Made by a program: the position numbers and the translations under genes. From an uncultured Flavobacteriaceae bacterium (GTDB taxonomy: Bacteria > Bacteroidota > Bacteroidia > AKYH767-A > OLB10), in the NCBI GenBank assembly GCA_964432885.1, contig CAYSPG010000012.1:25220-89219 (forward strand): a stretch of 64,000 nucleotides of DNA. Reading direction: 5' to 3'. Below the pieces are notes generated by a model. The model saw nothing but the letters and a program-made list of their open reading frames with translations, was not told the origin of the DNA and did not search any database. Below are positions 17,071-59,265 of this stretch, piece after piece; position 1 is the first letter of the stretch, and each line of letters begins with the position of its first letter.

Positions 17071-18369
17071 CTACAATACCTCAAAAACCTTTTCCATTTT
17101 GCTACCACGCGAACCCTTTATAAGAATAGTTGAATTTTGGATATTTAGGGTTTTTATATAATCAGCCGCTATTGAACTATCGGCAAAATGCATTGCCATG
17201 TTATTGGTATCGACCATAGCAAACCGTTTGCCTACAAGAAAAACGTTTTTAAAATTCAAATTTAAAATTTGGCTGAGGACATTTTTGTGTTCGTCAATTT
17301 CATGCTGGCCCAGTTCAAGCATTTCGCCAAGTATCAAAATTTTATTACCGCTATAGTTTTCATCCAGGTTTTTTATGGCAACACTCATGCTTGTTGGGTT
17401 TGCATTATATGCATCAATAATTATGGTATTTGATTTTTTTACAACCACCTGTGAGCGCTGGTTAGTGGGCACATAGTTTTTTATTGAAATGTTTATTAAA
17501 TCATCAGCAATGCCAAAGTATTTACCAATTGCAATGGCACCTAATACGTTTTCAAAATTATAGCCTCCGGTTAATTGGGTGGCTGCATGGTTTTTTGATT
17601 CCCTATTTTGGTTAAAAAACCAGTTGATTGAGAGAAAAGGGTTTACCTCTAAAACTTCTCCAGTAACTAAATTATTACCACTATCACCATAAAAAACAAC
17701 GTTAGAATAATCCTTGCAAAAAGGAGCAAGAAATTTATTGGCACTATTACAAAAAATTGTTCCTTTTTTATTTTTAAGAAAATGATACAACTCTGTTTTG
17801 CCTTTTATCACACCTTCAAAACCACCAAAGCCTTCGAGGTGTGCTTTGCCAACATTGGTAATTAATCCATGTGTGGGGTTTGCAATTTTGCATAACATAT
17901 CTATTTCGCCCTGGTGATTGGCTCCCATTTCTATCACTGCTATATTGTGATGCCTGCTTAATTTAAGTAATGTAAGCGGCACCCCAATGTGGTTATTTAA
18001 ATTACCTTCGGTAAAAAGCACATTGTATTTTGTTTTTAATACGGCTGCTGTAAGTTCTTTGGTGGTGGTTTTACCATTGCTGCCTGTTAATGCAATTACA
18101 GGTATATGCATGGTGTTGCGGTGGTGTGTAGCCAACTTCTGAAGTGTGGTTAACACATCATTTACTTTTATCAATCGCGCATCGTTACCACCTAAATCTT
18201 CATCCACCACTGCAAAAGCGGCTCCCATCTGAAGCGCTTGCAGTGCAAATGTGTTTGCATTAAAACTGGGCCCTTTTAATGCAAAAAAAATTGAACCTTT
18301 ATTTATTTTTCGAGAATCGGTGCAAACACCTGATGAGTTTAAAAATGCCTGGTAAATTCTTTCAATCAT
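17071..18369 (-). CDS. murF: UDP-N-acetylmuramoyl-tripeptide--D-alanyl-D-alanine ligase
   Basis: 432 aa; Mur ligase ATP-binding motif GSNGKTTTKE and N-terminal MurF domain. Confidence 0.9.
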   Translation of the reverse strand: MIERIYQAFLNSSGVCTDSRKINKGSIFFALKGPSFNANTFALQALQMGAAFAVVDEDLGGNDARLIKVNDVLTTLQKLATHHRNTMHIPVIALTGSNGKTTTKELTAAVLKTKYNVLFTEGNLNNHIGVPLTLLKLSRHHNIAVIEMGANHQGEIDMLCKIANPTHGLITNVGKAHLEGFGGFEGVIKGKTELYHFLKNKKGTIFCNSANKFLAPFCKDYSNVVFYGDSGNNLVTGEVLEVNPFLSINWFFNQNRESKNHAATQLTGGYNFENVLGAIAIGKYFGIADDLINISIKNYVPTNQRSQVVVKKSNTIIIDAYNANPTSMSVAIKNLDENYSGNKILILGEMLELGQHEIDEHKNVLSQILNLNFKNVFLVGKRFAMVDTNNMAMHFADSSIAADYIKTLNIQNSTILIKGSRGSKMEKVFEVL

Positions 18370-18431
18370 TGGTCAAAAATAAAAAACCCTTCCGCTTTTG
18401 ACAGAAGGGTTTGTATTAATACTAAATTTTA

Positions 18432-29365: not shown

Positions 29366-29524
29366 AGCTTATTTTATTTAAAAGTCGGCCAAAAGTAAGG
29401 AAATTGAAGATGTAAAAAGTCTGTTTGCTGTTTTCGGTTTTCGGTTTTAAATGCAAATCCAAACATTCTTCTTTGACCATATTATACTGGAGCTAATCTG
29501 TAATTTATTTAATGCCTCCATTAA

Positions 29525-30415: not shown

Positions 30416-31670
30416 CTTTATTGCGGTTAAATTTTTTTTCGTGAAAAGCTCCTTTAAAATCGGGATTGTCTTTGCGCTTTTGCCTGTCAATTTCCATGGC
30501 TTGTTCCTGCTGCTCGGCAAATGTTGTTTTTTCTATTGCAATTTCAGCAGGCAATTCTTTTACAGGAATTTTTAATCCAATAAGTTTTTGAATTTTTTTT
30601 ATGTGCCATTCATCGGCCGGTGTGCAAAACGTTATGCAGGTACCGGTATTAAATGCGCGGGCTGTGCGGCCTGTGCGGTGCACATAATCTTCGTACACAA
30701 TCGGAACATCAAAATTTATTACATGCGAAACTGCCGATACATCAATGCCGCGTGCAGTAACATCGGTAGTTATCAAAATGGTAATGGCGCTTTCGCGAAA
30801 AGTGTTTAACGTGTTGGTGCGTGTTTGCTGTGCTTTATCGCCATGTAAAATATTTACTCCGCTTTCTTCAAACTCAAATTTTAAATTTTCGAAAACAGCA
30901 TTGGCAATTTTTTTTGATTTACAAAACACAATTACTTTTTTAAAAACCTCTTTTTGATTTAGCAGGTGCCTGAGAAAATTTATTTTGGTACCAAAGTTTG
31001 GTGTTTTATAAAGTTCTTGTTCAACTGTTGCCACTGTTTTTATTTCAGGAACAATGTTTATCACAATTGGGAACTCCATAAAGTCATCAGCAATTTTTTT
31101 TACCCTATCCGAAAATGTTGCCGAAAACAAAATGTTTTGCCGCTTGCGCGGAAGCACTTCAAGCAGTTTATGCAATTGTGGTGTAAATCCAAAATCCATC
31201 AGCCGCTCGGCTTCGTCAAGTACAAAGTGTTTTACTTTTTTTAAGATTAAAAAATTAGACAGGTACAGTTCCATTAATTGTGCCGGAGTACCTACTACGA
31301 CATCACAGCCGTCTGATAATTTTTTTTTCTGGTCGGTAAATCCTTTGCCGCCATAAACAGCAACTATTCTTACATCCGTATTTTTTCCCAACTGGTTAAA
31401 TACCGATGTTATTTGCAAAACAAGTTCACGGGTAGGAGCCACCACAACAAGGCGAGGCTCGTTTTCCTGAGCGTAATTTAAAATGCGCAACAGCGGCAAT
31501 ACATAGGCGGCAGTTTTACCAGTGCCTGTCTGTGCAATTCCAATTATATGCTGTCCACCAAGTATAATGGGAATGGCTTTGCTTTGAATCTCAGTAGGTG
31601 TAACAAATCCTGCATCGGCAACAGCAGTAAGCAACTGCTTGTTTAAGCGCAATTCTGAAAACGATGTCAT
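30396..31670 (-). CDS. DEAD-box ATP-dependent RNA helicase
   Basis: Q-motif (FVTPTEIQ), Walker A AQTGTGKT, DEAD box (VLDEAE), SAT, and HRTGRTAR motif VI. Confidence 0.92.
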   Translation of the reverse strand: MTSFSELRLNKQLLTAVADAGFVTPTEIQSKAIPIILGGQHIIGIAQTGTGKTAAYVLPLLRILNYAQENEPRLVVVAPTRELVLQITSVFNQLGKNTDVRIVAVYGGKGFTDQKKKLSDGCDVVVGTPAQLMELYLSNFLILKKVKHFVLDEAERLMDFGFTPQLHKLLEVLPRKRQNILFSATFSDRVKKIADDFMEFPIVINIVPEIKTVATVEQELYKTPNFGTKINFLRHLLNQKEVFKKVIVFCKSKKIANAVFENLKFEFEESGVNILHGDKAQQTRTNTLNTFRESAITILITTDVTARGIDVSAVSHVINFDVPIVYEDYVHRTGRTARAFNTGTCITFCTPADEWHIKKIQKLIGLKIPVKELPAEIAIEKTTFAEQQEQAMEIDRQKRKDNPDFKGAFHEKKFNRNKDGHRKK

Positions 31671-31712
31671 GCTGTTTGTGGTTTGAGGTTTGTAGTTTGA
31701 AGTTTGAGGTTG
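31671..31712 (-). promoter_or_regulatory. 5' leader made of five tandem heptads NNCAAAC ending 3 nt before the helicase AUG
   Basis: mRNA sense reads CCTCAAACTTCAAACTACAAACCTCAAACCACAAACAGC-AUG, with CAAAC recurring at an exact 7-nt period. Confidence 0.5.
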
Positions 31713-31770
31713 GGTTTCTCTTTATGTTATTTATACTTCAAACCTAAAACTTCAAACCATGAACCTTAAC

Positions 31771-32508
31771 CTACTTAACCCCTTTTTTAAGATGCACATT
31801 GCGAAGTCTGATGTTAAGTAACTCAACAAGCAACGAAAATGCAAGAGCGGTGTAGATATAACTTTTGTCTAAATGCAAATGCAATGATTCAACAAGTAGT
31901 ACCACACCTATTACAACTAAAAATGCAAGGGCCAGCATTTTAAGTGTTGGGTATTTTTCAATAAACGTGCTAACATACGGTGCAAAGGCCAGCATCACAA
32001 GCATTGAAATTACAACAGCAATAACCATAATAATTATTTGGTTACTCAAACCTACTGCTGTTATTATACTATCAAAAGAAAACACAATATCAATAAGCGT
32101 AATTTGCAATATGGCCTGTGTCATTGTCATTTGTCTTGACTTTGAGGTTTCTTCGTGGTCAGCAATTTTAAATTTGTGGTAAATTTCTTTTATGGTTTTT
32201 ATAATCAGGAAAACTCCACCCGAAAATAAAATCAAATCGCGGCCGCTAACGCCAAAATCAACAATGTAAAAAAGCGGGTTTACCAATCGGGCAATCCATG
32301 AAATGGTAAACAGCAAACAAATGCGAATTACCAAAGCCATCATTAAGCCAAGTGTACGCGCTGTTTTTTGGTCTTTTTTATTGGATACGTATCCGCAGAT
32401 AATGGCAATAAAAATTATGTTGTCAATACCCAATACAATTTCCATCAGTATTAGTGTTACTAGGCTGATGATTCCTTCGGGTGTCATTAAGGGGGCGAGA
32501 ATGTCCAT
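31771..32508 (-). CDS. TerC/Alx family integral membrane protein
   Basis: 245 aa, 7 TM helices, N-terminus LILMEIVLGIDNIIFIAI typical of TerC. Confidence 0.85.
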   Translation of the reverse strand: MDILAPLMTPEGIISLVTLILMEIVLGIDNIIFIAIICGYVSNKKDQKTARTLGLMMALVIRICLLFTISWIARLVNPLFYIVDFGVSGRDLILFSGGVFLIIKTIKEIYHKFKIADHEETSKSRQMTMTQAILQITLIDIVFSFDSIITAVGLSNQIIIMVIAVVISMLVMLAFAPYVSTFIEKYPTLKMLALAFLVVIGVVLLVESLHLHLDKSYIYTALAFSLLVELLNIRLRNVHLKKGVK

Positions 32509-32552
32509 ATACGGTTTAAAGTTTGAAGTTTACGGTTTGAAGTTTGAAGGGT
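32509..32552 (-). promoter_or_regulatory. 5' leader made of tandem heptads (Y)NN(C/T/A)AAAC ending 5 nt before the TerC AUG
   Basis: mRNA sense reads CCTTCAAACTTCAAACCGTAAACTTCAAACTTTAAACCGTAT-AUG. Confidence 0.5.
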
Positions 32553-32740
32553 GTTAGTAGGGCAAACAAGTAATTTGTTATCTTTAATCTGACATTCGAT
32601 GGTTTCAGATAACTGAAAACGGCAAACTGCAAACCGTTTTCGGCCGCAAATGTAACACAACAGCCTAAACCAAAATATTATTTTTACCTTAGGCAACGTT
32701 TGGCCTCATTTTGTAGTCTATGTATTTATAACTAACCTAA

Positions 32741-35401
32741 ATGAAAGAAAAGAAGTGTTTATTGGCATCCATTTTTTTTATGGTTTACCTGCCATCTGCT
32801 ATGGCACAAAATGGTCTAACGGTTTATGGTATGCCTTCGGGCTACACTTTAAATCAGGTGCGATACAAGAACTGTATAACAACAGATGTTAACAATAATG
32901 TTTACGTTGGATTCAGAGATATAGGTTTAGGAAAATTTACTCCTTCAACATCCACATGGGTAATGTATGATACGGTTAATTCAGTAATTCCATCAAACAA
33001 AATACTATCGCTTGACATTGATAATGCAGGAAACGTGTGGGCAGGTACAACAAAAGGTCTTGCAAAATACGATGGCAGTAACTGGACTGTTTACAACACG
33101 CAAAACTCAAATCTTATAAACGATAGTGTACAAAGTTTATTTATAGTTGGAACCAATATTTGGTTGGGCACTCCACAAGGTGTTTCGGTTTTTAATGGAA
33201 GCTTTACAAATTACACCACATCAAACTCATCATTAGTAAACAACAACATTACCTGCTTTGATGTTGATAGTGCCGGAAAAATTTTGATTGGTACTACAGG
33301 AGGGATTTCAATTTTTGATGGAAGCACCTGGACAAATTACACAACTGCCAACAGCGGTTTAATTTCAAACCAGATAAGACAGGTAAAATATGTTTCATCA
33401 AAAGCTACTTGGATTTCGACTGTTGCGGGAATTTGCAAATTGCAAAACGGCACCATTATAAATTACAACTGTGACTACACCTATTTATTTAATTTTTTTA
33501 TGGCTTCATACACAATTGCTAAAAAAAGTGATGAACTTTATGTTTTCCAGTATAATTTAACAAGGTTTAATGAGGATGATAATATTGACAGTATTGGGGT
33601 AAACGTAAGAGCAATGGGTAGCGTTGCGTTAATACAGTTTACCCACTTTGCATTCGACCATAACGGATTGCTTTGGACAGCTTATGGTGCCAACTCTACC
33701 ACAGCCGGGCTTTCAGCGTTTGACGAAACTCAATCATCAGGATTTGTCAATGTTACCCATGTTTCAAGCGAAAAGCATATTGACATTAACAATGTTGGGG
33801 CGCTGATAAGAAACAGAGGCGAAATGTTTTGGGATGGAGTTGGTGCTCCGCAGTATGAAGTACCTAAGTGCAGCGGTAAACACGCAAATTTTGCAGCTGC
33901 ACTTTGGATTGGTGGTTATGACCAAAATGGTTTATTGCACACCGCAGCACAAACATACAGGCAAGGTGGCAGAAATGATTTTTTACCAGGCCCACTGGAT
34001 ACCACCAATGCAACCATGGATTCGCTTATAACTATGGCTCCTTACGATAATATTTGGAGAACTAACCGCAATACCATTGATGCATTTAAAATAAATTTTT
34101 TAAACGGAAATGTGACCAATGGAACTTACCCTGTGCCAAACGAAATTTTAAGTTATCCCGCCAACGGTAGCGGTAACATAACACGCAACCTTGCTCCTTA
34201 TGTTGATTACAACGGAGATGGAAACTACAACCCTTATGATGGCGATTATCCAAAAATAAAAGGCGACCAGCAACTGTACTGGATTTTTAACGACCAAACT
34301 TTACACACCGAAACTGGTGGGCCTGCGTTTGGTTTTGAAATACATGCTTATGCATATGCATATAGTTGTAACCAAATTAACTTAGGCGATAGCAATGCAG
34401 TAATTGACTACACAACTTTTTATAAATATGAAATAATTAACCGAAGTATAAATACTTACGATAGTGTGTTTATAGGTTTGATGACTGACAGTGATCTAGG
34501 AGATGGATGGGATGATTATTTAGGCTGTGATTCTGTTTTAAATGCAGCCTTTACCTATAATGGAGATAATGATGATGGCACTGGATTTCCAAATGGATAT
34601 GGATTAAATCCACCTATGATTAATTGTCAGGTATTAAAGGGTCCTGAACCAGTACCTAATGATGGCATAGACAACGACCATGATGGAATCATAGATGAAT
34701 CAGGGGAGTTGAATATGATGACTGTATTCCATCCTTATACTGGAGGAGGCTCGATAACTGGCTACCCAGTTGCCACTGATGATTACTATCAATTTTTAAT
34801 TTCCAGATGGAGAGATGGCTCATTCGTAACGAATGATGGATTAAATGGTACAAACCAAAATTCTCCACCGACAAATTACCTCTATTCAGGAGTCCCATAT
34901 TCTGGAAATGGCTGGACTGAAGGTAGTGCTGGTAACGTTCCTTCTGACAGACGATTCGTTCTTTCTTCAGGCCCTTTTACAATTGCACCCAATGAAACAC
35001 GCACCATTGACTTTGCGTATGTATTTACATGGGATAGCACAGCGGTTAACGGATTAAATACTTCCATTGCGCGCAACACTGCCGATTTGCAACGGGTTAA
35101 GTATTGGTTTGACAACAATAATTTTCCATCATGCCTTAATACAGGAATAGAACATGCATCAACAAAAATTCCTGAAATAAAAATTTTCCCAAACCCGTCA
35201 ACCGATTTTATTACAGTAAGATGCTCTGATGTTTCAAGCCCCGTAAAAGTTGATATGTATGATGTAACAGGAAGAAAAATACTAAGCCGCAAAATAATTT
35301 CAGAAGGACAAGTAAATGTTTCCAGGCTCAGTCCTTCGGTATATTTTTTGCGCGCTGTGGTTAATGGAAATGCAGTTACTAAAAAGTTTGTGAAAAATTA
35401 A
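32741..35401 (+). CDS. Secreted protein with N-terminal two-component-regulator-propeller (Y_Y_Y-type) repeats and a T9SS type A C-terminal sorting domain
   Basis: Signal peptide; repeated motifs NVWAGTTKGLAKYDGSNWTVY...; C-terminus KIFPNPSTDFITV...VYFLRAVVNG matches the Por_Secre_tail type A domain. Confidence 0.75.
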   Translation: MKEKKCLLASIFFMVYLPSAMAQNGLTVYGMPSGYTLNQVRYKNCITTDVNNNVYVGFRDIGLGKFTPSTSTWVMYDTVNSVIPSNKILSLDIDNAGNVWAGTTKGLAKYDGSNWTVYNTQNSNLINDSVQSLFIVGTNIWLGTPQGVSVFNGSFTNYTTSNSSLVNNNITCFDVDSAGKILIGTTGGISIFDGSTWTNYTTANSGLISNQIRQVKYVSSKATWISTVAGICKLQNGTIINYNCDYTYLFNFFMASYTIAKKSDELYVFQYNLTRFNEDDNIDSIGVNVRAMGSVALIQFTHFAFDHNGLLWTAYGANSTTAGLSAFDETQSSGFVNVTHVSSEKHIDINNVGALIRNRGEMFWDGVGAPQYEVPKCSGKHANFAAALWIGGYDQNGLLHTAAQTYRQGGRNDFLPGPLDTTNATMDSLITMAPYDNIWRTNRNTIDAFKINFLNGNVTNGTYPVPNEILSYPANGSGNITRNLAPYVDYNGDGNYNPYDGDYPKIKGDQQLYWIFNDQTLHTETGGPAFGFEIHAYAYAYSCNQINLGDSNAVIDYTTFYKYEIINRSINTYDSVFIGLMTDSDLGDGWDDYLGCDSVLNAAFTYNGDNDDGTGFPNGYGLNPPMINCQVLKGPEPVPNDGIDNDHDGIIDESGELNMMTVFHPYTGGGSITGYPVATDDYYQFLISRWRDGSFVTNDGLNGTNQNSPPTNYLYSGVPYSGNGWTEGSAGNVPSDRRFVLSSGPFTIAPNETRTIDFAYVFTWDSTAVNGLNTSIARNTADLQRVKYWFDNNNFPSCLNTGIEHASTKIPEIKIFPNPSTDFITVRCSDVSSPVKVDMYDVTGRKILSRKIISEGQVNVSRLSPSVYFLRAVVNGNAVTKKFVKN

Positions 35402-41573: not shown

Positions 41574-41630
41574 ACCAAAGGAGGTTTGCAGTTTACTTTT
41601 TGTGGTTTGCAGATTATGGTTTGCGGCTAA
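41574..41630 (-). promoter_or_regulatory. 5' leader with GCAAACC heptad-lattice repeats abutting the MoxR AUG
   Basis: mRNA sense reads GCCGCAAACCATAATCTGCAAACCACAAAAAGTAAACTGCAAACCTCCTTTGGT-AUG; GCAAACC at offsets 0, 14 and 35 (multiples of 7). Confidence 0.4.
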
Positions 41631-41667
41631 TTAAATTTAAACTACAAACGTTACATCTTAAACCATT

Positions 41668-43047
41668 TTAATTAATCCACTTTTTTAAATCATCGCAAAG
41701 TACAAAGTCTTTGCTTAGTTGTATATAAGTTGTTTTCTTTTTTCGGGTTACCCATTCGTCAAGCAAACGGTTTTGTTTTGTTTGCATGGCTGCTGTTTGT
41801 ATTCGCTGATAATCATCTACCAGGTTCGCAACGTGAGGTGTGGTTCGTTTTTTAAGATAAAATATTTTATACGACTGTGTTCCGTCTTTTTCGGTAATAA
41901 GTGCCGGGGTTGAAATTTCGCCTTCTTTAAGTTTATCAAGTTGAAAAAACACCATGGCATCTACCTGGCTTGTTTCAAACCGGGTGTTGCCCGATTGTGG
42001 ATTAACCACATTGCCGCCATTAAGTTTTGTTTGCTCATCAGCCGAATATTTTATGGCAGCATCATCAAATGTAATTTCGCCAGCACGTATTTTATAGGCA
42101 ATACTATCTGCTTGAGTTTTGGATTTTAATAAATCTTCGCTGCCAACAACAGGTTTTAATAAGATGTGACGTACATTAATCTGTTCGCCTCTTCTATCAA
42201 TCATTTGTATGATGTGGTAACCAAACTTTGTTTCAACAATTTCTGAGAGTTCGCCTTTTTTTAGTTTAAAAGCTGCAGCTTCAAACTCGGGTACGTATTG
42301 CCCGCGGGGTACAAATCCTAATTCGCCACCATCCTTGGCTGTACCCTTATCATCCGAATACAATACCGCAAGGGTTGCAAACTCCTCGCCTTTCAAAATT
42401 CTTTGACGCAATTCGGTTAAGCGATTGCGCACCGCTTGCTTCTCTTCATTGCTTATGTTTATTTTACTTGCAATTTCAGCATACTCAATTTCTGAGTTTA
42501 TAAACGGTAAACTGTCTTTGGGTATGCTGTTATAAAACTCCTTAACCTCGGCAGGTGAGGCTGTGGCTTTGCCAGTAATCTTTTGCTGCATGGCCTGTGC
42601 CTGCATTTGTTCTTTTATCAGGGGTTTAAATTCGTCTTTAATTTCGGGAATTGATTTTTGGTAGTACTCTTCCAACTTTTCAGTTTGGCCGCCAAATTGC
42701 TCAACAAAATAATTAATGCGCTTGTCAAGTTCACTTTCAACCTGTGCATCGCTTACCTCTACACTGTCAAGTATTGCGTAATGAACCAATAGTTTTGAAA
42801 GCAATAATTGGTCAAGCACATCGCAGCGCACTGCATTGCTGCCGTAATTGCCCTGGCCAAGGTACTGTTGGTACTGCTGCTCTAAGTCCGACAGCATTAC
42901 AATGTTATTACCCACAACTCCCACCACTTGATCAATTACATTTTGCGGTTGTGCTAAAGCAGGTATGCTTATCGTTAAAAATAAACTGGCTGTAAAAATT
43001 TTATTTTGAATACACTTCAAAGTCATTGTTTTTTTGTGCTTGTTCAA
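41668..43047 (-). CDS. Periplasmic parvulin-type peptidyl-prolyl isomerase / chaperone (SurA-like)
   Basis: Signal peptide; SurA_N-like region; two rotamase motifs (GYHIIQ.., HILLKP). Confidence 0.8.
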   Translation of the reverse strand: MNKHKKTMTLKCIQNKIFTASLFLTISIPALAQPQNVIDQVVGVVGNNIVMLSDLEQQYQQYLGQGNYGSNAVRCDVLDQLLLSKLLVHYAILDSVEVSDAQVESELDKRINYFVEQFGGQTEKLEEYYQKSIPEIKDEFKPLIKEQMQAQAMQQKITGKATASPAEVKEFYNSIPKDSLPFINSEIEYAEIASKINISNEEKQAVRNRLTELRQRILKGEEFATLAVLYSDDKGTAKDGGELGFVPRGQYVPEFEAAAFKLKKGELSEIVETKFGYHIIQMIDRRGEQINVRHILLKPVVGSEDLLKSKTQADSIAYKIRAGEITFDDAAIKYSADEQTKLNGGNVVNPQSGNTRFETSQVDAMVFFQLDKLKEGEISTPALITEKDGTQSYKIFYLKKRTTPHVANLVDDYQRIQTAAMQTKQNRLLDEWVTRKKKTTYIQLSKDFVLCDDLKKWIN

Positions 43048-43825
43048 AAGCTGCCTGCTGCATTTGCTGTATCAGTTCAAGCTTTCGTTTATTAATAATA
43101 AGGGCTTTAATGTTTTCTCTTTCAAAATCAAGTGGCGACATGGTTTCTTTAATCTGAAAGTCGGCAATGTTAACAAAATAAACATTTGCCGAATCGGTAA
43201 TTTCTATAAAGCGGTTGTTCTGTAAAAAGGCTTCTTTATCATACGTTTTTATAGGAACTTTTTTAAGTAAATCGTCAAACAGCATCCAGTTGCTGTGATC
43301 AAGCAGGTAATCAATGCAGTACTGGTGGCAATATTCCTCAAGCTGCCGCTTGTCTTTATCAGCATTTGACCGCATCCATTTTTTTGCCTTTTCAATTTTA
43401 GGCGCTTTATTATTTACTTTTAAAAATGTTGCTTTAATGATGTTGTCTTTCAGTAAAAAATTTTTTTGATGTTCGGTATAGTATTTTCCTATTTCGTTTT
43501 CGGTAACTGTGGTATCAAGCCGCTGCCGCACCAACTCTTTTTCATAAATAAATGTGATTAACGAATTGCGGTACTCCTTTAATTGCTGCTCAACATTTTT
43601 CTGCTCTTCAACCAGGTTTACTTCAGCTTTATGCAAAACCACATTTTGCTTTATCCAGTCTTCAATAAAGTTTTTTACTATCATCATGCTATCCTGTTTA
43701 GACGCATTTTTTGGAACCAAACTTGCAAGTTCGTGTTTGTATAAGTACTTATCGTAAGCGCGGGCTACGGCATTTTGCTTTTCGGTGTCAGATGAAGGAA
43801 AATATTTGCACGATGCCATTACCAT
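43001..43825 (-). CDS. Hypothetical periplasmic or lipoprotein of the SurA-N-like chaperone neighbourhood; start ambiguous (43825, 43819 or 43930)
   Basis: Lys/Glu-rich helical protein without a rotamase domain. The 43930 start would read through a perfect 22-bp palindrome, so an internal start is preferred. Confidence 0.45.
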   Translation of the reverse strand: MVMASCKYFPSSDTEKQNAVARAYDKYLYKHELASLVPKNASKQDSMMIVKNFIEDWIKQNVVLHKAEVNLVEEQKNVEQQLKEYRNSLITFIYEKELVRQRLDTTVTENEIGKYYTEHQKNFLLKDNIIKATFLKVNNKAPKIEKAKKWMRSNADKDKRQLEEYCHQYCIDYLLDHSNWMLFDDLLKKVPIKTYDKEAFLQNNRFIEITDSANVYFVNIADFQIKETMSPLDFERENIKALIINKRKLELIQQMQQAAFEQAQKNNDFEVYSK

Positions 43826-43853
43826 AAATAACACATGGATATAAAAAAGTTTT

Positions 43854-43909
43854 GCGTTTAGTGTTTTAAGTTTAGGTTGGGCTAACACTAAACTTAAAAC
43901 ACTAAACGC
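43854..43909 (-). terminator. Very stable hairpin (22-bp perfect stem plus 3 further pairs) between two chaperone genes; terminator or attenuator
   Basis: GCGTTTAGTGTTTTAAGTTTAG-gttgggctaaca-CTAAACTTAAAACACTAAACGC; on the minus strand it is followed by AAAACTTTTTTAT. Confidence 0.55.
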
Positions 43910-43933
43910 AGAACTCAATAACTGCAACACGAA

Positions 43934-45883
43934 TTATTTATAAACTGTTTTTAAAACGGCTTCGTCAACACTTACCGGATACTTTTTGCGCAACTCATCA
44001 ATCCATGATTTTTCAAGATATGTTTGATAGTCGGCTGTAATTAATCCCTTGGCTTCGTCAAGCGATTTGGGTGCCGGAGCCAGTTTGGTGCGAACGTTTA
44101 TAAAAATGGTTTGATTGTTTTTGTTCATATCGGCAGTTATGCCGGGTGTCCATTCAATGCCATCAATGATATCGTTATCGCCTTTGCTAAACAGCGCTGT
44201 TTTTATGTTTACATTTAATGATGAATCTTTATTTATCTCAGCGGCTATGTCAGCATCTTTATTTCCTTTTTTAACCATTTTGCGCACCTTGGTTGCTATG
44301 CCTGTATTGGCACACGAATAGATGGTGGCATCCAAACGATCGCCCCACATATAGTTGCCTTTATTCTTATCATAAAACGCTGCCAATCCTGCCGAGTCTT
44401 TTACGGCTTTGCTCCACACCATTTTATCGGTAAGATCAAACAGCAAAATACCATCACGGTACTCCTGCATTAATGATTTAAACTCGGGGTACTTTTTATC
44501 CAGCATTGATTCTTCAAGGGCAATACACGATTCTTCTACAAACTGATTGTACTGTGTATATGCAACCGCTTGCGAGTTTGAGTTATTGTGTTTTACCTGG
44601 TGTTTCATCAAAAAGGTAGCAAAATCTTTTTGCGTATATGTTTTTGAGCCAAGTGTAAACAGCGGTTTGGTCATGCCCATAGCGCTGCTGTCATTATAGG
44701 TTCCGTTTACAAGCGAACTGTCAAGCGATTTGATAAAAGCGTCTTTGTTCAGGGGTGTTTCTTTAAACCCGTTTTCTTTTTTTATTCGGTTTACCAATGA
44801 TGTTTTTCCTATTTCGGAACGGCTGTCGCGGGTAATAGCTGCTTTAAGTTCGGCTTTCTTTTCTTCAAAAGAGGGCAATGCACGTTTTTCCAATCGCTTA
44901 ATGATGTGCCATCCATAAGCCGACTTAATGGGTTCAGAAATATCGCCATCATTTTTTAATGCAAATGCGGCCTTTTCAAATTCGGGAACCATGCGGCCTG
45001 TTCCAAACCAGGGCAATGCTCCGCCTGTTTTTGCCGAGCCTTTATCTTCTGTATATTGTGCTACCAGGTCGTCCCACTTTTCGCCTGCTTTAACTTTAGC
45101 ATATATATCGTCAATTCTTCGTTTTGCTTCCAACTCAACTGAGTCGGCATCGTTGGCTGTTGATTTTATCATGATATGTGCGGCATGAATTTCGCCAACT
45201 GCAGGGCGCACATCTTCAACGCGTATTATATGATAACCAAAGCGTGTGCGCACAGGCATCGAAATTTGTCCGGGCTTGGTATTAAAGGCAACCGTTTCAA
45301 ACGGATAAACCATTTGCATGCCGGTAAAGTAGCCCAAATCGCCACTGTTTTCTTTTGCCGAGGGGTCATCGCTACTGTCTTTTGCCATCTTGTAAAAATC
45401 GGCACCTTTTACAAGTTTCTCGCGAATGCGAATGGCTTTGTTATAAGCAGCAAGCGTATCTTTGGGCAATGCGTCCTGCGCTACTTTTATAAGTACATGG
45501 GTGGCTCTAACATCTTTCTGTAAGCGGTCATACGCTTCTTTAACTAAGTTTTCGTTTACATCCTTATCGGTAAGGTATGGCTGTGCCAACTGTTTGCGGT
45601 AGCCGGTAAGTTCGGTAACAAATGCTTCGGAAGTATCCATCTTTAAGGCTTCGGCCTCTTTTACCTTTAGCTTATAGTTTATGTAAAGTTCAAGATACTC
45701 GCGTACCGACTTTTGGTCGTTGCTGTTTTCTTTGTTATTGTTTTTGTAAAATACCCGTTCAAATTCAGTTTTCGAAATTTTATCACCGGCAACCGTAAGC
45801 AGGGTTTGCTCCTGGGCGTTTACGGTAACGGCAAAAGCTGTGGCTAACAGGCAGGCGTTTAGTTTTTTGTAAAACATGTTCAT
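43934..45883 (-). CDS. Parvulin-type peptidyl-prolyl isomerase (PpiD/SurA-like)
   Basis: Signal peptide MNMFYKKLNACLLATAFAVTVNAQ; two rotamase domains (ATHVLIK.., GYHIIRVE.., AAHIMIK.., GWHIIKRLE); ORF-track N-terminal extension rejected. Confidence 0.8.
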   Translation of the reverse strand: MNMFYKKLNACLLATAFAVTVNAQEQTLLTVAGDKISKTEFERVFYKNNNKENSNDQKSVREYLELYINYKLKVKEAEALKMDTSEAFVTELTGYRKQLAQPYLTDKDVNENLVKEAYDRLQKDVRATHVLIKVAQDALPKDTLAAYNKAIRIREKLVKGADFYKMAKDSSDDPSAKENSGDLGYFTGMQMVYPFETVAFNTKPGQISMPVRTRFGYHIIRVEDVRPAVGEIHAAHIMIKSTANDADSVELEAKRRIDDIYAKVKAGEKWDDLVAQYTEDKGSAKTGGALPWFGTGRMVPEFEKAAFALKNDGDISEPIKSAYGWHIIKRLEKRALPSFEEKKAELKAAITRDSRSEIGKTSLVNRIKKENGFKETPLNKDAFIKSLDSSLVNGTYNDSSAMGMTKPLFTLGSKTYTQKDFATFLMKHQVKHNNSNSQAVAYTQYNQFVEESCIALEESMLDKKYPEFKSLMQEYRDGILLFDLTDKMVWSKAVKDSAGLAAFYDKNKGNYMWGDRLDATIYSCANTGIATKVRKMVKKGNKDADIAAEINKDSSLNVNIKTALFSKGDNDIIDGIEWTPGITADMNKNNQTIFINVRTKLAPAPKSLDEAKGLITADYQTYLEKSWIDELRKKYPVSVDEAVLKTVYK

Positions 45884-46089
45884 AATTAGTGTATGATTTT
45901 TTTTAGGGATGGCAAATGTATGGAAAAGTTTGTGGTTTAAGCTTGGCATTTTTTTGTGGATTATACCATTGAAATGGCCCGGATGCCTAAGCATCTTTTG
46001 CAATTGGCCGGGCGAATGTAAAAAGCCCTGTGTGAATGAGAAATGAAAAGGAAACAAACCCTGCAAGCCTTAAAAAAAATGTTTTTTTG

Positions 46090-46370
46090 CTTGAATAATG
46101 AGTATAAGGACTGACAGAATTTTTTTTAAAGGACAAAATGCGTTGTTTTTGTGACAGAATCATTTGTTTTTGTGATAGAGCGAGATGTTTTATTATAGAA
46201 TAATGTTATACCACCATTCCATGATTTCGCTTTATGGCAGAATTATTTGCTGCCACCATAAAAACACATGCTTTTGCCACAGCAAGATGTGCTGCCGATA
46301 TTTCATGATTTTACATTAAGACAGAGTCATGTGCTGCTGTTGTCAAAATAAATCCATCTAATATTAAAAA
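46090..46370. repeat. Field of degenerate ~21-bp tandem repeats (core TTTTTGTGACAGAAT..TG)
   Basis: About 7 units, e.g. TTTTTGTGACAGAATCATTTG / TTTTTGTGATAGAGCGAGATG / ..TATGGCAGAATTATTTG.. / ..GCCACAGCAAGATGTG.. / ..AAGACAGAGTCATGTG.. Confidence 0.5.
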
Positions 46371-46433: not shown

Positions 46434-47087
46434 GTGAGCATTATACTTAAAGGCATTTATAAAAACTACGGCACCCTGCAGGTGTTAAAAGGAATAGATT
46501 TGGAAATAAGTCCATCAGAGGTGGTTGCGATAGTGGGGCCATCGGGGGCGGGTAAGTCAACGCTGCTGCATATTTTAGGAACTATTGACGAACCCGACCA
46601 AGGCCACATTACCATTAACAACACCGATGTGCAAAAGCTATCAGCAAAAAAACTTGCGGCATTTCGTAATCAAAATATTGGTTTTGTTTTTCAGTTTCAT
46701 CATTTGCTTGCTGAATTTACGGCATTAGAAAACACCATGATTCCGGCATTTATAGCCGGCAAGCCAAAAAAAGAAACCATAGAAAAGGCAAAAGAGTTGC
46801 TTACTTACTTAAAACTTGAACATCGCCTGCATCATAAACCGGCCGAGCTATCGGGTGGCGAGCAGCAGCGGGTGGCTGTGGCGCGTGCGCTGATAAACAA
46901 TCCGCCTTTTATCTTGGCCGATGAACCATCGGGCAACCTTGACAGCGGCAATGCAACCGATTTACACCATCTATTTTTTGAACTACGCAACAGGTTTAAA
47001 CATACCTTTGTAATAGTAACACATAACCCTGAACTGGCTCAAATGGCCGACAGAAAAATTACCATGCGCGATGGCAGGCTGGTGTAG
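46434..47087 (+). CDS. ABC transporter ATP-binding protein, LolD/FtsE-like
   Basis: Walker [10 protein letters not shown], signature [15 protein letters not shown], Walker [12 protein letters not shown]. Confidence 0.85.
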
Positions 47088-48246: not shown

Positions 48247-48789
48247 TTACGATTTCTCATCTATTCGTATTAAAGCAAACATGGCATAGTTAATCATGTC
48301 GTAATAGTTTGCTTCGAGCCCTTCAGAAATGATGGTTTGTCCTTTGTTATCTTCAATTTGTTTGATGCGTAAAATTTTCATCATAATTAAATCGGTAATG
48401 GAACTTACACGCATCTGCCTCCACGCCTCGTCATAATCATGATTTTTATTTTCCATCAGTTTTTTTGCAATAACAATGTGTTTGTCAAAATGTTTTTTGC
48501 CTTCGTCAAGCGATAAATGCAAATTGCCCTGCAAGCTAAGCTCAAGTTGCGTAAGCGCAATTACTGCATAATTTATAATGCCGATAAACTCATCGCGTAC
48601 ACCGTCTTCTACCATCTGTGTGCCTTTTTCTTCAATGCTGCGTATGCGTTGTGTTTTTATAAAAATTTGGTCGGTAATTGAACTGGGCCTTAACACCCGC
48701 CACGCACTGCCATAATCTTTCATCTTATTGATAAAAATATCTTTGCAGGCAGTAACTGCCGTATCGTATTGCTTTGCTGTTTGGGTCAT
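48247..48789 (-). CDS. DUF1599 domain protein (two tandem DUF1599 repeats)
   Basis: Internal duplication (YGSAWRVLRPSSITDQIFIKTQRIRSIEE / YDEAWRQMRVSSITDLIMMKILRIKQIED); divergent from folP as commonly seen in Bacteroidota. Confidence 0.75.
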   Translation of the reverse strand: MTQTAKQYDTAVTACKDIFINKMKDYGSAWRVLRPSSITDQIFIKTQRIRSIEEKGTQMVEDGVRDEFIGIINYAVIALTQLELSLQGNLHLSLDEGKKHFDKHIVIAKKLMENKNHDYDEAWRQMRVSSITDLIMMKILRIKQIEDNKGQTIISEGLEANYYDMINYAMFALIRIDEKS

Positions 48790-48826
48790 TGAAGAAGGTT
48801 CAAGGTTTGAGGTTTAAAGTTTGTGT
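48790..48826 (-). promoter_or_regulatory. 5' leader with four tandem heptads abutting the DUF1599 AUG
   Basis: mRNA sense reads CACAAACTTTAAACCTCAAACCTTGAACCTTCTTCA-AUG. Confidence 0.45.
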
Positions 48827-48837
48827 AACTCAATAGC

Positions 48838-48876
48838 ATCACATTATCAAATTATCATATCATCACATTATCAAAT
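48838..48876. repeat. Direct repeat ATCACATTATCAAAT x2 (24-bp spacing) in the DUF1599/folP divergent promoter region
   Basis: Copies at 48838-48852 and 48862-48876, flanked by ATCAT/ATCAC iterations. Confidence 0.6.
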
Positions 48877-48894
48877 CACCACATCATCACTCCA

Positions 48895-49707: not shown

Positions 49708-49739
49708 TCCTAAAAACATTTTTATTCATTTTTATTAAG

Positions 49740-49765
49740 CCGGCAGCAGTACTGCCTTTTTTTTA
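49740..49765 (+). terminator. Rho-independent terminator of folP
   Basis: GGCAG-cagta-CTGCC followed by T8. Confidence 0.6.
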
Positions 49766-49926
49766 TTTCAACTACTTCGATAACATGTGTTAACCAAATC
49801 AATATTCCCCGCCCAAAAAAACATAAGTAAAAATATTACAGACTAATAGTTTAAAATTTTTATCCCCTCAGCAAAATCGTTTGCTAAACACATCTCACTA
49901 TCTTTGCCATCTCATTTCTAAATTAA

Positions 49927-50277
49927 ATGGCCGAATTTCCTCCCTGTCCCAATTGCAAAGAAGATTATACCTACCTCAATAATGGAATGCTCGTTTGCCC
50001 AATGTGTTTTCACGAATGGAATTCTGATACAACATCCGAACCTGAAAAGGAAGAAATAACTGAGGCACCTGTTAAAGATGCTAACGGAAACATTCTCACC
50101 AATGGCGACACCGTAATAATTATAAAAGATCTTCCTGTAAAAGGAGCTTCAAAAGCTGTAAAGGCGGGCACAAAGGTTAAAAATATTCGCCTTACCGATG
50201 GCGATCATAATATTGACTGCAAAATTGATGGCTTTGGAGCCATGGCTTTAAAATCAGAATTTGTGCGGAAGGCATAG
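49927..50277 (+). CDS. phnA: PhnA/YjdC-family zinc-ribbon protein
   Basis: N-terminal CPNC...CPMC zinc ribbon and a conserved C-terminal PhnA beta domain ([14 protein letters not shown]...NIRL). Confidence 0.8.
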
Positions 50278-50658
50278 TAATTTGTTCAGCCCTTAAGTAT
50301 GCCGACCTCCATAAACAGGTAGCAAATTCGCTATACGTTAGCGTATTACACTTGTAAAATAATTAATACCTGAATATTATGAGGTTGAGTTTGAATTGCC
50401 CGGGTTTGAAAAAGTTGCGAAACAAAATAAAGACATGAGCCCTGGTGACAAAGAAAAATTGATTAATGAAATTGTTCCGGTGAGTTAATTGAAAATTGTT
50501 TTGAAAAGAGAAATGTCTGTAAAAAAATTACAGGAATTTTTATTTCTCAGAAACCCAGAATAAATGTGGCCTGATGGGAATGCAGAAGATAAGTATGCCT
50601 CGGTTTTTGTTTGAGTAATTGGAAAGGAACCTATTTTATATAACCGTACAACTAAGAG

Positions 50659-52500: not shown

Positions 52501-52543
52501 ACAAATGCAGTTTAGTGGTTAGAGTAATTATTAACTAAAAAAG

Positions 52544-52935
52544 TGGAGCCGGTGGGAGTTGAACCCACGTCCAGACACGGAATCAATGTGCTTTCTTCAT
52601 GCTTAGCATTTGCTTAATTGTAGGGATAATGTGTGGCGAAATGCTTACCGTCATTATCCTTAGCTCTTTTATCTTATTGCTGTGGCAGAGCAACACAGCA
52701 ACCAGCCTGTATTTTCGATGCCTCTGAACTTACCTCTACAAGCGTAAGGTAAGAGAGACAGCTTGTTCGGGTACTATCGTACCGGAATTAAGCTAACCCA
52801 CATAGTGGATTAGGCAGCAAGCGCGTAGTCGTTTTCGCCATTTAGACGAGTGAGAATCGGGATTAACGGGTGGTATTCACAGCACCCGGCATGCTTACAC
52901 ACCTATTGCACATGCTGTCGATTCCTTTCGGCCCC
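52544..52935 (-). ncRNA. ssrA: tmRNA (SsrA), encoding tag peptide GENDYALAA
   Basis: 5' end GGGGCCGAAAGGAATCGACAGCA; 3' tRNA-like end GGACGTGGGTTCAACTCCCACCGGCTCCA (T-arm plus acceptor); internal tag ORF GGC GAA AAC GAC TAC GCG CTT GCT GCC TAA on the minus strand at 52810-52839. Confidence 0.85.
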
Positions 52936-53127: not shown

Positions 53128-53173
53128 CGTTTCAAACAACAAACCTTAACCTTTGTTATTTAATGGTTTGAAA
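53128..53173 (+). promoter_or_regulatory. Nested stem-loop in the leader of the KAS III-like gene
   Basis: GTTTCAAAC-AACAAA-ccttaacc-TTTGTT-atttaatg-GTTTGAAAC; contains CAAAC at a 7-nt spacing. Confidence 0.4.
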
Positions 53174-53197
53174 CAAAAATTGTGAGTTAATATTTTA

Positions 53198-58077: not shown

Positions 58078-59265
58078 GTGAGCCGCATTGTAGTAACAGG
58101 ATTGGGTGTAATAAGCCCACTTGGAAACTCAGTAAGCGAAAATCACCGGGCACTTACCCAAAGCACCTGCGGCATTTCATCACTCGAGCTTTTTAAAACA
58201 AAATATGCAGCCACACTTCGCTTTGGTGAAATTAAAACCGAAAACGCTAAACTAAAAGAAGACCTTGCGGCTAATGAAGAAAGCGTAACGCGAACAAGTT
58301 TGCTTGCATTGCACGCTTTTAATCAGGCTGTTTCGTCAAGCAAACTAATGCCCTCACAGGTTTCATCACCTGATTGTGCACTTGTGGTTGCAAGTACCGT
58401 TGGCGGCATGTGTTTAACCGATGAGTTGTATAGCGACTCAAACAGCCATTCAAAAGGCTCTTCTTTTCTTTCATCATACGATTGCGCTTCTGCTGCCATG
58501 TATCTTCAGCACCGGTATCAAATCAAAGGTGTGGTTAATACCATTAACACCGCTTGTTCTTCGGGTGCCAATGCAATTATGTTTGGCGCACGCCTGATAA
58601 AAAACGGATTTGCAAAACGGGCAATTGTTGGTGGAACCGACAGCCTTGCAAAATTCACCATCAATGGTTTTAACTCCCTTAACATTCTTGCTCCACAAAA
58701 TTGCAGGCCTTTTGATAAGGAGAGAAACGGATTAAATCTGGGCGAAGGCGCGGGTTTTATAGTTCTTGAAAGAGAAGAAGATTGTGAAAACAAAAAAATA
58801 TATGCTTCGCTTACCGGCTATGCCAATACAAACGATGCATTTCACCCATCATCCATTTCAGAAAATGGCGAAGGGCCTTTTCTTGCTATGAGCAAAGCGC
58901 TTTTGCTTGCCGGCCTTGAGCCTGAAAAAATCAACTACATTAATACACATGGCACCGGCACAGAAAACAATGATGAAACAGAAAGTAAAGCGATGATTCG
59001 TATTTTTAAAATCGTTCCTCCTTTTGCTTCTTCAAAATCAAAAATAGGGCACACACTTGGTGCTGCTTCAGCTATAGAATCGGTGTTTAGCATTCTTGCG
59101 CTTTCAAATAGTGAATTGTACCCAAGTTTAAATTTTGTTAATCCTATCGAATCCACTTTGCTTTGTCCGGTTACTAACTATCAAAAAATGAACATACAAA
59201 ACGTTATGTGCAACTCGTTTGGTTTTGGTGGAAATTGCAGTTCGCTTATTTTTTCAAAAAGCTAA
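58078..59265 (+). CDS. Beta-ketoacyl-ACP synthase (FabF/FabB-like KAS I/II), GTG start
   Basis: VVTGLGVISPLGN N-terminus, active-site Cys (TACSSGANAI), His motifs (NTHGTGT, KSKIGHTLGAAS). Confidence 0.85.
   Translation: MSRIVVTGLGVISPLGNSVSENHRALTQSTCGISSLELFKTKYAATLRFGEIKTENAKLKEDLAANEESVTRTSLLALHAFNQAVSSSKLMPSQVSSPDCALVVASTVGGMCLTDELYSDSNSHSKGSSFLSSYDCASAAMYLQHRYQIKGVVNTINTACSSGANAIMFGARLIKNGFAKRAIVGGTDSLAKFTINGFNSLNILAPQNCRPFDKERNGLNLGEGAGFIVLEREEDCENKKIYASLTGYANTNDAFHPSSISENGEGPFLAMSKALLLAGLEPEKINYINTHGTGTENNDETESKAMIRIFKIVPPFASSKSKIGHTLGAASAIESVFSILALSNSELYPSLNFVNPIESTLLCPVTNYQKMNIQNVMCNSFGFGGNCSSLIFSKS

Follow-up and report, generated by a model that had tools for sequence, protein, structure and literature searches.

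Tandem arrays of a seven-nucleotide unit with the core CAAAC precede the start codons of a helicase gene and a TerC gene in a stretch of 64,000 nucleotides (nt) of contig CAYSPG010000012.1 from an uncultured Flavobacteriaceae bacterium; this whole stretch is called the window here. The arrays are heptanucleotide tandem repeats of the simple-sequence repeat kind, and they are a trait of genomes, not of genes. Their placement is two-sided: the A/C-rich, G-free strand lies in mRNA sense right 5' of start codons, and its G/U-rich complement right 3' of stop codons. The reading we favour, with a confidence evenly balanced against doubt, is that slippage-born heptamer repeats are kept in leaders as structure-free, G-poor landing pads for ribosomes. 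Positions refer to the window, and arrays marked (-) were read in minus-strand mRNA sense.

The helicase leader array (31674..31713, -) was identified by a phased scan and by Tandem Repeats Finder. It consists of six phased heptads, five of which contain an exact CAAAC, and is G-free. The array reads (C)CAACCTCAAACTTCAAACTACAAACCTCAAACCACAAAC, the whole of 31674-31713 being CCAACCTCAAACTTCAAACTACAAACCTCAAACCACAAAC, and is followed by AGC-ATG, leaving a gap of 3 nt to the ATG at 31670 of the gene for a DEAD/Helicase_C protein (Pfam). The TerC leader array CTTCAAACTTCAAACCGTAAACTTCAAACTTTAAAC (32514..32552, -) is followed by CGTAT-ATG, with a gap of 5 nt to the ATG at 32508 of the gene for the TerC-family protein. 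Its five units at 32514-32546 comprise three CAAAC and two TAAAC, and according to Tandem Repeats Finder a 21-nt block of three heptads has been duplicated in it with 94% identity. An earlier note on this DNA had quoted these arrays and counted five heptads in each leader. The quoted sequences are present at the positions it gave. Its Pfam names for the downstream genes were confirmed, and these genes are unrelated in function as it had said.

Both leaders have inverted partners upstream, at 31739-57 and 32616-34 on the plus strand. The partner of the helicase array lies in a GTTTG-type heptad run (31735..31770, -; GGTTAAG GTTCATG GTTTGAA GTTTTAG GTTTGAA) that begins immediately 3' of the TerC stop TAG (31773-31771). 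This run is the 5' arm and the helicase array the 3' arm of a long, imperfect hairpin (31675..31774, -) with arms of 34 nt, 79% complementary, and a loop of 29 nt. The hairpin has a folding energy of -29.1 kcal/mol (z -4.7) and none of 200 shuffles was equally stable. It occupies the entire 100-nt spacer between the two genes, and the base of the stem sets the TerC stop beside position -8 of the helicase AUG. Rfam gave only sub-threshold miRNA-precursor matches on it, as for a generic hairpin. The TerC leader pairs with a partner arm (32611..32641, -; GGTTTGCAGTTTGCC in minus sense) through arms of 27 nt that are 78% complementary and 73 nt apart, and this pairing is weaker than that in the TerC-helicase spacer (fold z -2.0 with partner 32611-32637; duplex -19.6 kcal/mol, z -4.3). 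On the plus strand the partner arm reads GCAAACTGCAAACC (32622-32635), about 105 nt upstream of the gene at 32741. The earlier note had listed this run as one more case of the lattice; it is present, but as part of the inverted partner of the TerC leader and not as a separate occurrence. The 12-mer AAACTGCAAACC, said to be common to this region and the MoxR leader, has exactly two occurrences, 32624-32635 (+) and 41583-41594 (-), with 0.04 expected. The arms proved interchangeable, since the GTTTG run behind the TerC stop can pair with the leader of TerC, of the helicase or of DUF1599 to much the same degree. The TerC partner arm is embedded in a local palindrome, GAAAACGG-N11-CCGTTTTC with CAAACTGCAAA in the middle (32615-32641), in the divergent spacer between TerC and the type IX secretion system (T9SS) cargo gene; this palindrome is a possible competitor of the long-range pairing with the TerC leader.

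The runs are not random. The three-unit pattern CAAACNNCAAACNNCAAAC with at most two mismatches gave 16 matches in the window when 0.65 were expected, and none of 100 shuffles reached 16, while a generalised, looser scan gave 10 arrays against 0.14 expected. All the CAAAC-core arrays were found within the non-coding 8% of the window, and the looser scan included one coding match (58234-58252). Tandem Repeats Finder reported period 7 (together with 14/21) at 31674-31711, 32514-32549 and 41583-41623. As had been claimed, the arrays are strand-specific relative to the downstream gene: those of the helicase, TerC, MoxR and DUF1599 genes are all in sense orientation and end 3, 5, 10 and 15 nt before the ATG, respectively. 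That a strict period abuts the AUG in at least four genes was an overstatement, since two arrays abut it (3 and 5 nt), two are imperfect and at 10-15 nt, and one is at about 50 nt.

The arrays contain approximately 35-45% C and almost no G. In the window, the regions from -40 to -1 include 12.8% G, compared to 20.5% in coding sequence, and 36.5% A, and the sequences after stops are T-rich (38.5%). With 0-2 G in this region for the helicase, TerC, DUF1599 and folP-like genes (none in the folP-like leader), the array leaders are the extreme of a window-wide trend of G-poor leaders. The helicase initiation region, with a minimum free energy (MFE) of 0.0 and an unpaired probability of 0.88, is the least structured among 29 genes, and the second-highest unpaired probability (0.78) belongs to the folP-like leader, which carries a different repeat. 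These properties, G-freeness and the MFE of 0.0 in the helicase region, fit a putative S1-dependent enhancer.

No TAnnTTTG box, the consensus of the -7 element of Bacteroidota sigma-A promoters, was found within any CAAAC-sense array. Perfect boxes lie upstream. The first, TAGGTTTG (31739..31746, -), is 68 nt from the helicase ATG and falls within the 5' arm of the hairpin between TerC and the helicase; the second, TACATTTG (32647..32654, -), precedes the TerC ATG by 138 nt and has a -33 TTTG at spacer 16. The search was based on consensus match alone, with the boxes of the transfer-messenger RNA (tmRNA) and carbamoyltransferase genes as positive controls. Because the arrays have no such box inside and end 3-10 nt from the ATG, we infer that they must be transcribed. 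From the first box, a candidate internal promoter, the transcript would hold the CAAAC arm only, while the predicted TerC 5' untranslated region (UTR) starting from the second would include both arms.

Several known element types were considered and rejected. A Shine-Dalgarno site was rejected since no GGAGG-like purine core occurs in these nearly G-free leaders; together with the missing TAnnTTTG boxes this agrees with the earlier verdict that the arrays are neither promoter nor Shine-Dalgarno site. Pairing of UCAAAC with the 5' end of 16S rRNA (GUUUGA) was likewise discarded, that segment being presumably buried in helix 1 and the central pseudoknot. A fixed register with Kozak-like A positions (-3, -6, -12, -13) was rejected because the helicase leader alone fits it. 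The yybP-ykoY Mn riboswitch is common upstream of TerC genes. A known RNA family or riboswitch upstream of TerC was rejected on the Rfam scans: in the whole window only tmRNA exceeded the gathering score, and a scan of 31400-32900 at permissive settings returned nothing beyond sub-threshold miRNA-precursor matches. The arrays of 31671-32552 showed no terminator-like site, and the hairpin between TerC and the helicase lacks a U-tract. The arrays of the window are accounted for by neither a canonical terminator nor a sigma-70 promoter. Also a miniature inverted-repeat transposable element (MITE) with a conserved core or target duplication was rejected, as the loops between the arms are dissimilar and no duplication was seen.

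The gene order TerC-helicase-EamA is conserved in relatives. In the relatives with 83 and 80% identical helicases the spacers do not have CAAAC arrays, and in a relative with a 65% identical helicase (L123/L124, 10001-10004) TerC and the helicase gene overlap by 4 nt as ATGA. The overlap indicates that the pair was ancestrally coupled; in this window the hairpin splits it. The locus L123 also holds a weak Y1_Tnp gene at 17884-18414. As the orthologous loci of relatives have no arrays, the arrays are recent and lineage-specific, a property of the genome or lineage and not dedicated control sites of these genes, and a conserved gene-specific regulatory element is ruled out. The runs taken earlier for a shared cis-element are real and recurrent, but they are not conserved at the orthologous genes of close relatives. 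The density of arrays per 10 kb was 0.94 in the window and 0 in the loci of the relatives, and it was 0.73 in other array-bearing Bacteroidota loci among the matches listed, when the search match itself was excluded.

Periods of 7, 14 and 21 nt, the 94% duplication in the TerC leader and the variation between five, six and seven units in phages all speak for slippage. The arrays most likely arise and resize by slipped-strand duplication of 7-, 14- or 21-nt blocks, and the earlier alternative of a family of repeats captured as leaders comes close to this picture of repeats as a lineage trait. Copy numbers of 5, 6 or 7 units were seen only in the analogous phage arrays, in near-identical contigs before the same gene, which is a different one from the conserved phage family described below. 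The only other contig of this organism has an identical sequence with no length difference in the helicase leader, and a metagenome search for helicase-leader length variants found none.

The scan for four exact units covered 185,579 species genomes and detected at least 119 loci. Among the at least 119 loci listed, 52 belong to Bacteroidota (Chitinophagaceae, Saprospiraceae, Flavobacteriia and others) and 15 to cyanobacteria. Strains of Niastella, Cnuella and Paraflavisolibacter are among the matches, and the closed Saprospiraceae genome OZ245751.1 is rich in arrays. The listed Bacteroidota loci include ten CAAAC-sense arrays whose end lies 2-31 nt ahead of a sense start, and one such GTTTG-sense array. 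Near stops the relation is reversed, with 21 of the 27 GTTTG-sense arrays lying from -8 to +15 nt of a stop as against 2 of the 25 CAAAC-sense arrays (Fisher's exact test, p = 5e-6). Read in gene sense, this class is [stop](GTTTGNN)n, and it sits after stops at least as often as arrays sit before starts; the reported association with start codons therefore holds, but as one half of the pattern. The trend was repeated in the same loci by arrays other than the search matches, and the orientation bias covers 61 Bacteroidota arrays in the matches listed and 83 viral intergenic arrays. The stop-adjacent open reading frames (ORFs) look like genuine proteins, for instance acetyl-CoA synthetase, UvrD-like and TrpD-like ones, on a by-eye reading of the translations, made with no database search. 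In some cases the stop codon is itself part of a GTTTGA/GTTTGTAG unit. Such strand polarity at both starts and stops implies that the repeats have been filtered by constraints of gene expression and are not simply random junk.

The symmetry of the polarity, by which the CAAAC strand reads towards the gene at both ends, would also be expected of Rho loading pads (rut-like), terminating antisense transcripts that enter the 3' end of a gene and untranslated sense leaders. The composition, about 35-45% C with almost no G, fits as well. We nevertheless consider such pads highly unlikely, since arrays of about 35-45 nt look short compared to the typical length of rut sites and a conserved phage gene would be ill served by a rut site in its leader. 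A DNA-level element, i.e. direct-repeat sites of a transcription factor or a phase-variable spacer like the ctxAB TTTTGAT heptads and the Haemophilus 7-bp promoter repeats, is scarcely credible. The 21-bp super-period of the TerC and MoxR arrays does equal two helical turns, and promoter heptad repeats have precedents (bioRxiv 10.1101/2021.05.14.444153). However, the arrays reach to 3-5 nt from the ATG, downstream of any plausible promoter, imperfect repeats are poor slippage switches, and the strict strand polarity at starts and stops points to a constraint at the level of RNA or translation.

The viral contigs showed the same polarity. Sense arrays were within 15 nt of a start in 31 of 55 cases and antisense arrays in none of 38, and GTTTG-sense arrays were within 15 nt of a stop in 10 of 23 cases, CAAAC-sense arrays in 4 of 39. 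The start-adjacent viral arrays, 42 in number, precede 23 distinct genes, and the majority of phage arrays are at most 5 nt from a start. One gene family of uncultivated phages, encoding proteins of 110-158 amino acids (aa) with the N-terminus MAKFIKF... and the motif ITANPGGV, has an (AACAAAC)5-7 leader in 18 contigs (L217, 11806-12204, and 17 other viral loci, e.g. L165, L169, L206 and L222). The leader ends 3-7 nt before the ATG, also in homologues that are 30-34% identical and have divergent flanking DNA. The family is always preceded by the array and by a conserved ACAGA-N5-6-ACTG motif approximately 15 nt upstream of the array. The protein matched neither a PHROG family nor any isolate phage, and the nearest sequenced phage has no arrays. 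The structural protein of the phages that carry the family matches only phages of Flavobacterium, Cellulophaga and Maribacter and one host-less uncultured-phage record, and the structural protein, portal and terminase putatively place these phages with Bacteroidota phages. Retention of the leader across homologues of about 30% identity argues for a function. The arrays thus change length by slippage and are also preserved, in one setting at least.

It is possible, although we lean against it, that the arrays are neutral, slippage-prone junk that expands in heptamer-prone genomes and survives where position and orientation are harmless. The polarity would then be one of tolerance, a G/U-rich array before a start giving false TTG/GTG starts and structure, and a stop-free CAAAC array abutting a stop giving long read-through tails. 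The array-free orthologous loci of close relatives, the variable spacing between array and AUG and the copy-number changes in 7-nt steps are all in line with this explanation, as are other repeat units that behave alike (in the folP-like leader, and units in many loci), the stop codons that come from GTTTGA/GTTTGTAG units, and the relatives with shorter, repeat-free spacers in MacGregor 2015 (PMC4679880). On the other hand, the phage family keeps its array across homologues of about 30% identity whose flanks have diverged. The placement is also tight, with 21 of 27 stop-facing arrays at most 15 nt away in the listed loci and phage arrays mostly within 5 nt of a start, tighter than passive tolerance would lead one to expect in spacers of 60-800 nt.

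A partner array was present for 10 of the 57 arrays in the listed Bacteroidota loci, with the GTTTG arm first in all ten and the reverse order in none. This order follows from the polarity rule, which gives a T-rich array followed by an A-rich one on either strand and does so in tandem, divergent and convergent spacers alike. Among paired arrays outside Bacteroidota (e.g. L044 and L116; Anaerolineae, Chthoniobacteraceae) the CAAAC arm came first in 8 cases and second in 3, a small sample from the matches listed. In the viral collection paired arrays are nearly absent (1 and 0 contigs for the two arrangements). A [stop]-hairpin-[ATG] structure was found in Saprospiraceae (L095; -65 kcal/mol, z -8.3), and in Chitinophagaceae (L086; -33.5 kcal/mol, z -4.4) the hairpin apparently also extends from stop to start, the upstream stop being read by eye. 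The hairpin of L075 has -54 kcal/mol. The stop-to-start hairpins of the window, L095 and apparently L086 have z values from -4.2 to -8.3. A general promoter in the GTTTG arm was rejected, as a perfect TAnnTTTG is present in the helicase arm only and the 5' arms of L086 and L095 do not have it.

The strongest hairpin of the window lies elsewhere, at 43848..43915 (-), with the arms GTTTAGT GTTTTAA GTTTAG / CTAAAC TTAAAAC ACTAAAC of 28 nt and 96% complementarity. In the window-wide hairpin search it had -49.1 kcal/mol and z -8.4, and it is followed by TTTTTT. It begins 18 nt after the stop of the gene 43934-46066 and ends 28 nt before an ATG at 43819, the two genes being co-oriented. As the strong stem precedes a T6 tail the hairpin looks like a terminator; a simple terminator scanner left it unscored since its loop is longer than 8 nt, and the tail was seen by inspection. 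The listed ORF 43001-43930, with a GTG start, crosses the hairpin, and its real start is therefore probably the ATG at 43819.

These structures raise the alternative that the hairpin is the functional unit, a stem-loop comparable to repetitive extragenic palindromes (REP) and serving as terminator or attenuator, stabiliser, RNase III site or coupling device, and that single arrays are half-sites or decayed. The strong stop-to-start hairpins (z -4.7 in the TerC-helicase spacer and the energies of L095, L075 and L086 given above), the terminator-like 43848-43915 with its heptad arms and T6 tail, and the uniform GTTTG-first order are consistent with it. The same is true of the ATGA overlap of TerC and helicase in the relative, as a sign of ancestral coupling, and of the interchangeable arms, where the post-TerC arm pairs equally with three leaders. 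We hold this alternative to be doubtful, because most arrays are partnerless in the listed loci and almost all in viruses, and only two of the six candidate hairpins in the window were significant. With the exception of 43848-43915, the 3' arms are not followed by a U-tract; the terminator scan scored no canonical site at the arrays, and the arms do not enclose a conserved REP core.

Under the landing-pad reading, the arrays in leaders would form part of the 5' UTR and offer the 30S subunit an A/C-rich, unstructured landing site in Bacteroidota. Initiation in this phylum depends on an unpaired, A-rich and G-poor region, possibly through protein bS1, and the array would then act as a generic translational enhancer or insulator and not as a gene-specific switch. 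Bacteroidota do without Shine-Dalgarno pairing, and in F. johnsoniae low structure and A at -3, -6, -12 and -13 modulate initiation, with bS1 as the suspected binder of the A-rich initiation region (PMC6847099; PMC7797042). In spacers that contain both a GTTTG array behind a stop and a CAAAC array ahead of the following start, as in the TerC-helicase, L095 and L086 cases, the long hairpin may hide the downstream leader until it is opened by ribosomes finishing the upstream gene, which would amount to translational coupling. Alternatively, transcription starting inside the 5' arm of the hairpin would bypass it.

Several points weigh against this reading. The arrays stand at varying distances from the AUG (3, 5, 10, 15 and about 50 nt) and in varying register, with A at -3, -6, -12 and -13 only in the helicase leader, and the predicted structure of the MoxR array leader is average among the 29 genes. 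Since close relatives have no arrays, these genes do not need them, and in this genome they could be neutral. Furthermore, the GTTTG arms upstream would mask the leaders of the helicase and TerC unless the transcript begins between the two arms or translation of the upstream gene melts the stem, and the tight stop adjacency of GTTTG arrays is unexplained by a function in initiation.

The idea preferred in the earlier note, a specific trans-acting RNA-binding protein (of the cold-shock or RRM-1 family, or a specialised S1) with a post-transcriptional regulon, appears quite unlikely. Genome-specific richness in arrays would fit a lineage-specific factor, and phased short motifs suit proteins with several OB-folds or RRMs. 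Abundant Bacteroidota RRM-1 proteins bind single-stranded RNA (bioRxiv 10.1101/2021.04.27.441718; PMC11697453), and MacGregor 2015 argues the same for TAACTGA repeats (PMC4679880). Yet the first two positions of the unit are degenerate, unit count and distance to the AUG vary, and AACAAAC, CCCAAAC and CATCACAT fill the same niche, so that what is shared appears to be base composition rather than a motif. In addition, the downstream genes are functionally unrelated and the arrays are linked to no candidate protein. The sole motif shown to bind RbpB, GUAGGAUA, is unrelated to the arrays and was rejected as their identity. A specific site for such a protein is possible, but no present result requires one.

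A broader proposal, which we consider unlikely as a whole, is that CAAAC/GTTTG arrays are gene-boundary punctuation of Bacteroidota and their phages. In it CAAAC arrays would be Shine-Dalgarno-independent ribosome entry modules, read by bS1 or a lineage-specific single-strand RNA binder, with their complements at stops; pairing across a spacer or cistron would give repeat-encoded translational coupling. If this were true, translating one gene would license initiation of the next. Current evidence on start-site choice in Bacteroidota comprises only low structure and a few upstream adenines. The G-free heptad leaders, which replace the whole region from -5 to -45 in unrelated genes, are simple natural test objects, and the polarity rule, a quantitative regularity seen in bacteria and viruses alike, could help annotation tools, for instance in placing start codons.

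The remaining arrays of the window are less regular. The lattice that had been described before MoxR, DUF1599 and KAS III is present at all three, but it is imperfect at the first two (three and two exact units, respectively) and weak at KAS III. The MoxR leader array (41584..41623, -) has three exact CAAAC among six phased positions and a 21-nt super-period, and ends 10 nt before the ATG at 41573. Its weak partner is a run of GTTT[G/A]-type heptads, GGTTTAAG ATGTAAC GTTTGTA GTTTAAA (41633..41664, -), directly 3' of the stop of the peptidyl-prolyl isomerase (PPIase) gene (41670-41668); the fold of the MoxR region was not significant (z -1.1). The DUF1599 leader array CAAACTTTAAACCTCAAACCTTGAAC (48798..48823, -) includes two exact CAAAC and a TAAAC, then TGAAC (48805-48823), with the last exact CAAAC 15 nt before the ATG at 48789, and no significant fold was found in this region. 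Upstream of the KAS III gene a weak hairpin (53129..53174, +; z -1.2) pairs two CAAAC heptads (53133-53144) with GGTTTGAAAC downstream. The CAAAC arm comes first, the hairpin lies approximately 25-50 nt upstream of the ATG, and the two exact units are about 50 nt upstream.

Two arrays have other units. A variant array AAAACCG AAAACCG AAAACAG CAAAC (29423..29448, -) is situated between the EamA stop and the carbamoyltransferase start. The carbamoyltransferase gene has a perfect -7 box, TACTTTTG, 24 nt before its TTG start, and as the array is upstream of this box it is probably outside the leader. The leader of the folP-like (Pterin_bind) gene contains a G-free repeat, CATCACAT... / CATCACATTATCAAAT... 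(48833..48890, +), of period 8/24. It covers the last 58 nt of the leader, ending 4 nt before the ATG at 48895, and the DUF1599 CAAAC array lies in the same divergent spacer. The folP-like gene thus has a leader of this kind built from another repeat unit.

Some further features of the window were recorded. The tmRNA gene (52541-52935, -) scored 150 bits with Rfam, ARAGORN gave the tag peptide GENDYALAA, and a perfect -7 box, TACCTTTG, lies 20 nt upstream. The ORF 59654-63094 (-; 1146 aa) contains in-frame tandem repeats at 59993-61121, one with period 162 (2.4 copies, 79% matches) and a second with period 186 (3.1 copies, 97% matches), suggesting recently duplicated protein modules. A 21-nt direct repeat, TGTTTTTGTGACAGAACCAGA, occurs in 2.3 copies at 46144-46191 in the divergent spacer of the genes 43934-46066 (-) and 46434-47087 (+) and could be a regulator binding site. 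At 50219-50266 an overlapping palindrome surrounds GGAGCCATGGCT inside a 950-nt stretch between convergent genes (49708-50658) that has no ORF of at least 120 aa.

Among known systems the closest are the TAACTGA heptamer direct repeats, found a few nt upstream of starts in Beggiatoaceae, cyanobacteria and five Bacteroidetes (MacGregor 2015, Front Microbiol, PMC4679880). Like the present arrays these are tandem 7-nt repeats, nearly all intergenic and forward, before unrelated genes and in place of a Shine-Dalgarno site. Orthologous spacers of close relatives are shorter and repeat-free, and TAACTGA strains differ by indels in 7-nt steps. One reverse-orientation array right after a stop is described, in Flexibacter litoralis (PMC4679880), whereas stop-adjacent reverse arrays are a major class here. 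Binding of S1, of cold-shock proteins (Csp) or of a CsrA-type protein was proposed for TAACTGA (PMC4679880). The unit also differs, being here YYCAAAC with two degenerate positions, imperfect copies and no G, and many of the present arrays have an inverted partner and form stop-to-start hairpins. No match to the TAACTGA repeat TAACTGATAACTGA with at most two mismatches was found in the window. The present arrays are of the same kind as the TAACTGA heptamer repeats but of another family.

The short tandemly repeated repetitive (STRR) sequences of cyanobacteria are heptanucleotide repeats as well. Together with the long simple sequence repeats they resemble the present arrays as lineage-bound, intergenic 7-nt arrays attributed to polymerase slippage. 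To our knowledge, the literature on both, including its summary in the TAACTGA paper, describes neither a polarity towards starts and stops nor a role in leaders. The present arrays differ also in being short (3-6 units) and degenerate. The term long simple sequence repeats is that of Mrazek et al. 2007, as summarised in PMC4679880.

The phage (AACAAAC)n leaders are nearly poly-CAA, like the omega leader of tobacco mosaic virus (TMV). The (CAA)n leader of TMV omega reportedly works in E. coli and binds S1, and CA repeats are said to act as enhancers. With such A/C-rich enhancers and the A-rich regions of Bacteroidota (PMC6847099) the arrays share G-poor, unstructured sequence directly 5' of the AUG in place of a Shine-Dalgarno site, but the enhancers have no heptad periodicity, and the register of the arrays to the AUG is not fixed. 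REP sequences, bacterial interspersed mosaic elements (BIME) and intercistronic hairpins resemble the window in its multiple imperfect palindromes between co-oriented genes, one with a U-tract (43848-43915), and in the joining of stop and start at the stem base. In contrast to REP and BIME, there is no conserved REP core or tetranucleotide, the tandem-heptad arms pair with any other arm, most arrays are unpaired, and the palindromic character is variable.

In Nostoc PCC 7120, TTCAAAA/TTTTGAA heptamers occur upstream of recF and recO (bioRxiv 10.1101/2022.06.06.494920). The unit is nearly identical to the TTCAAAC found here, and the heptamers are contiguous, near or overlapping starts, with a suggested role in translation. 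Unlike the present case, the host is a cyanobacterium with Shine-Dalgarno usage, and effects on promoter and regulator access were reported as well. Neither full-text literature searches nor the passages of papers that were consulted gave a description of the YYCAAAC unit and of how widely it occurs in Bacteroidota, of a two-sided polarity in numbers, of stop-to-start heptad hairpins or of the deep conservation of a heptad leader in phages. The arrays are not an element of unknown kind, as had been thought, since heptamer repeats before starts were already described for TAACTGA (PMC4679880); those of the window belong to this little-studied but already described class of heptamer tandem repeats.

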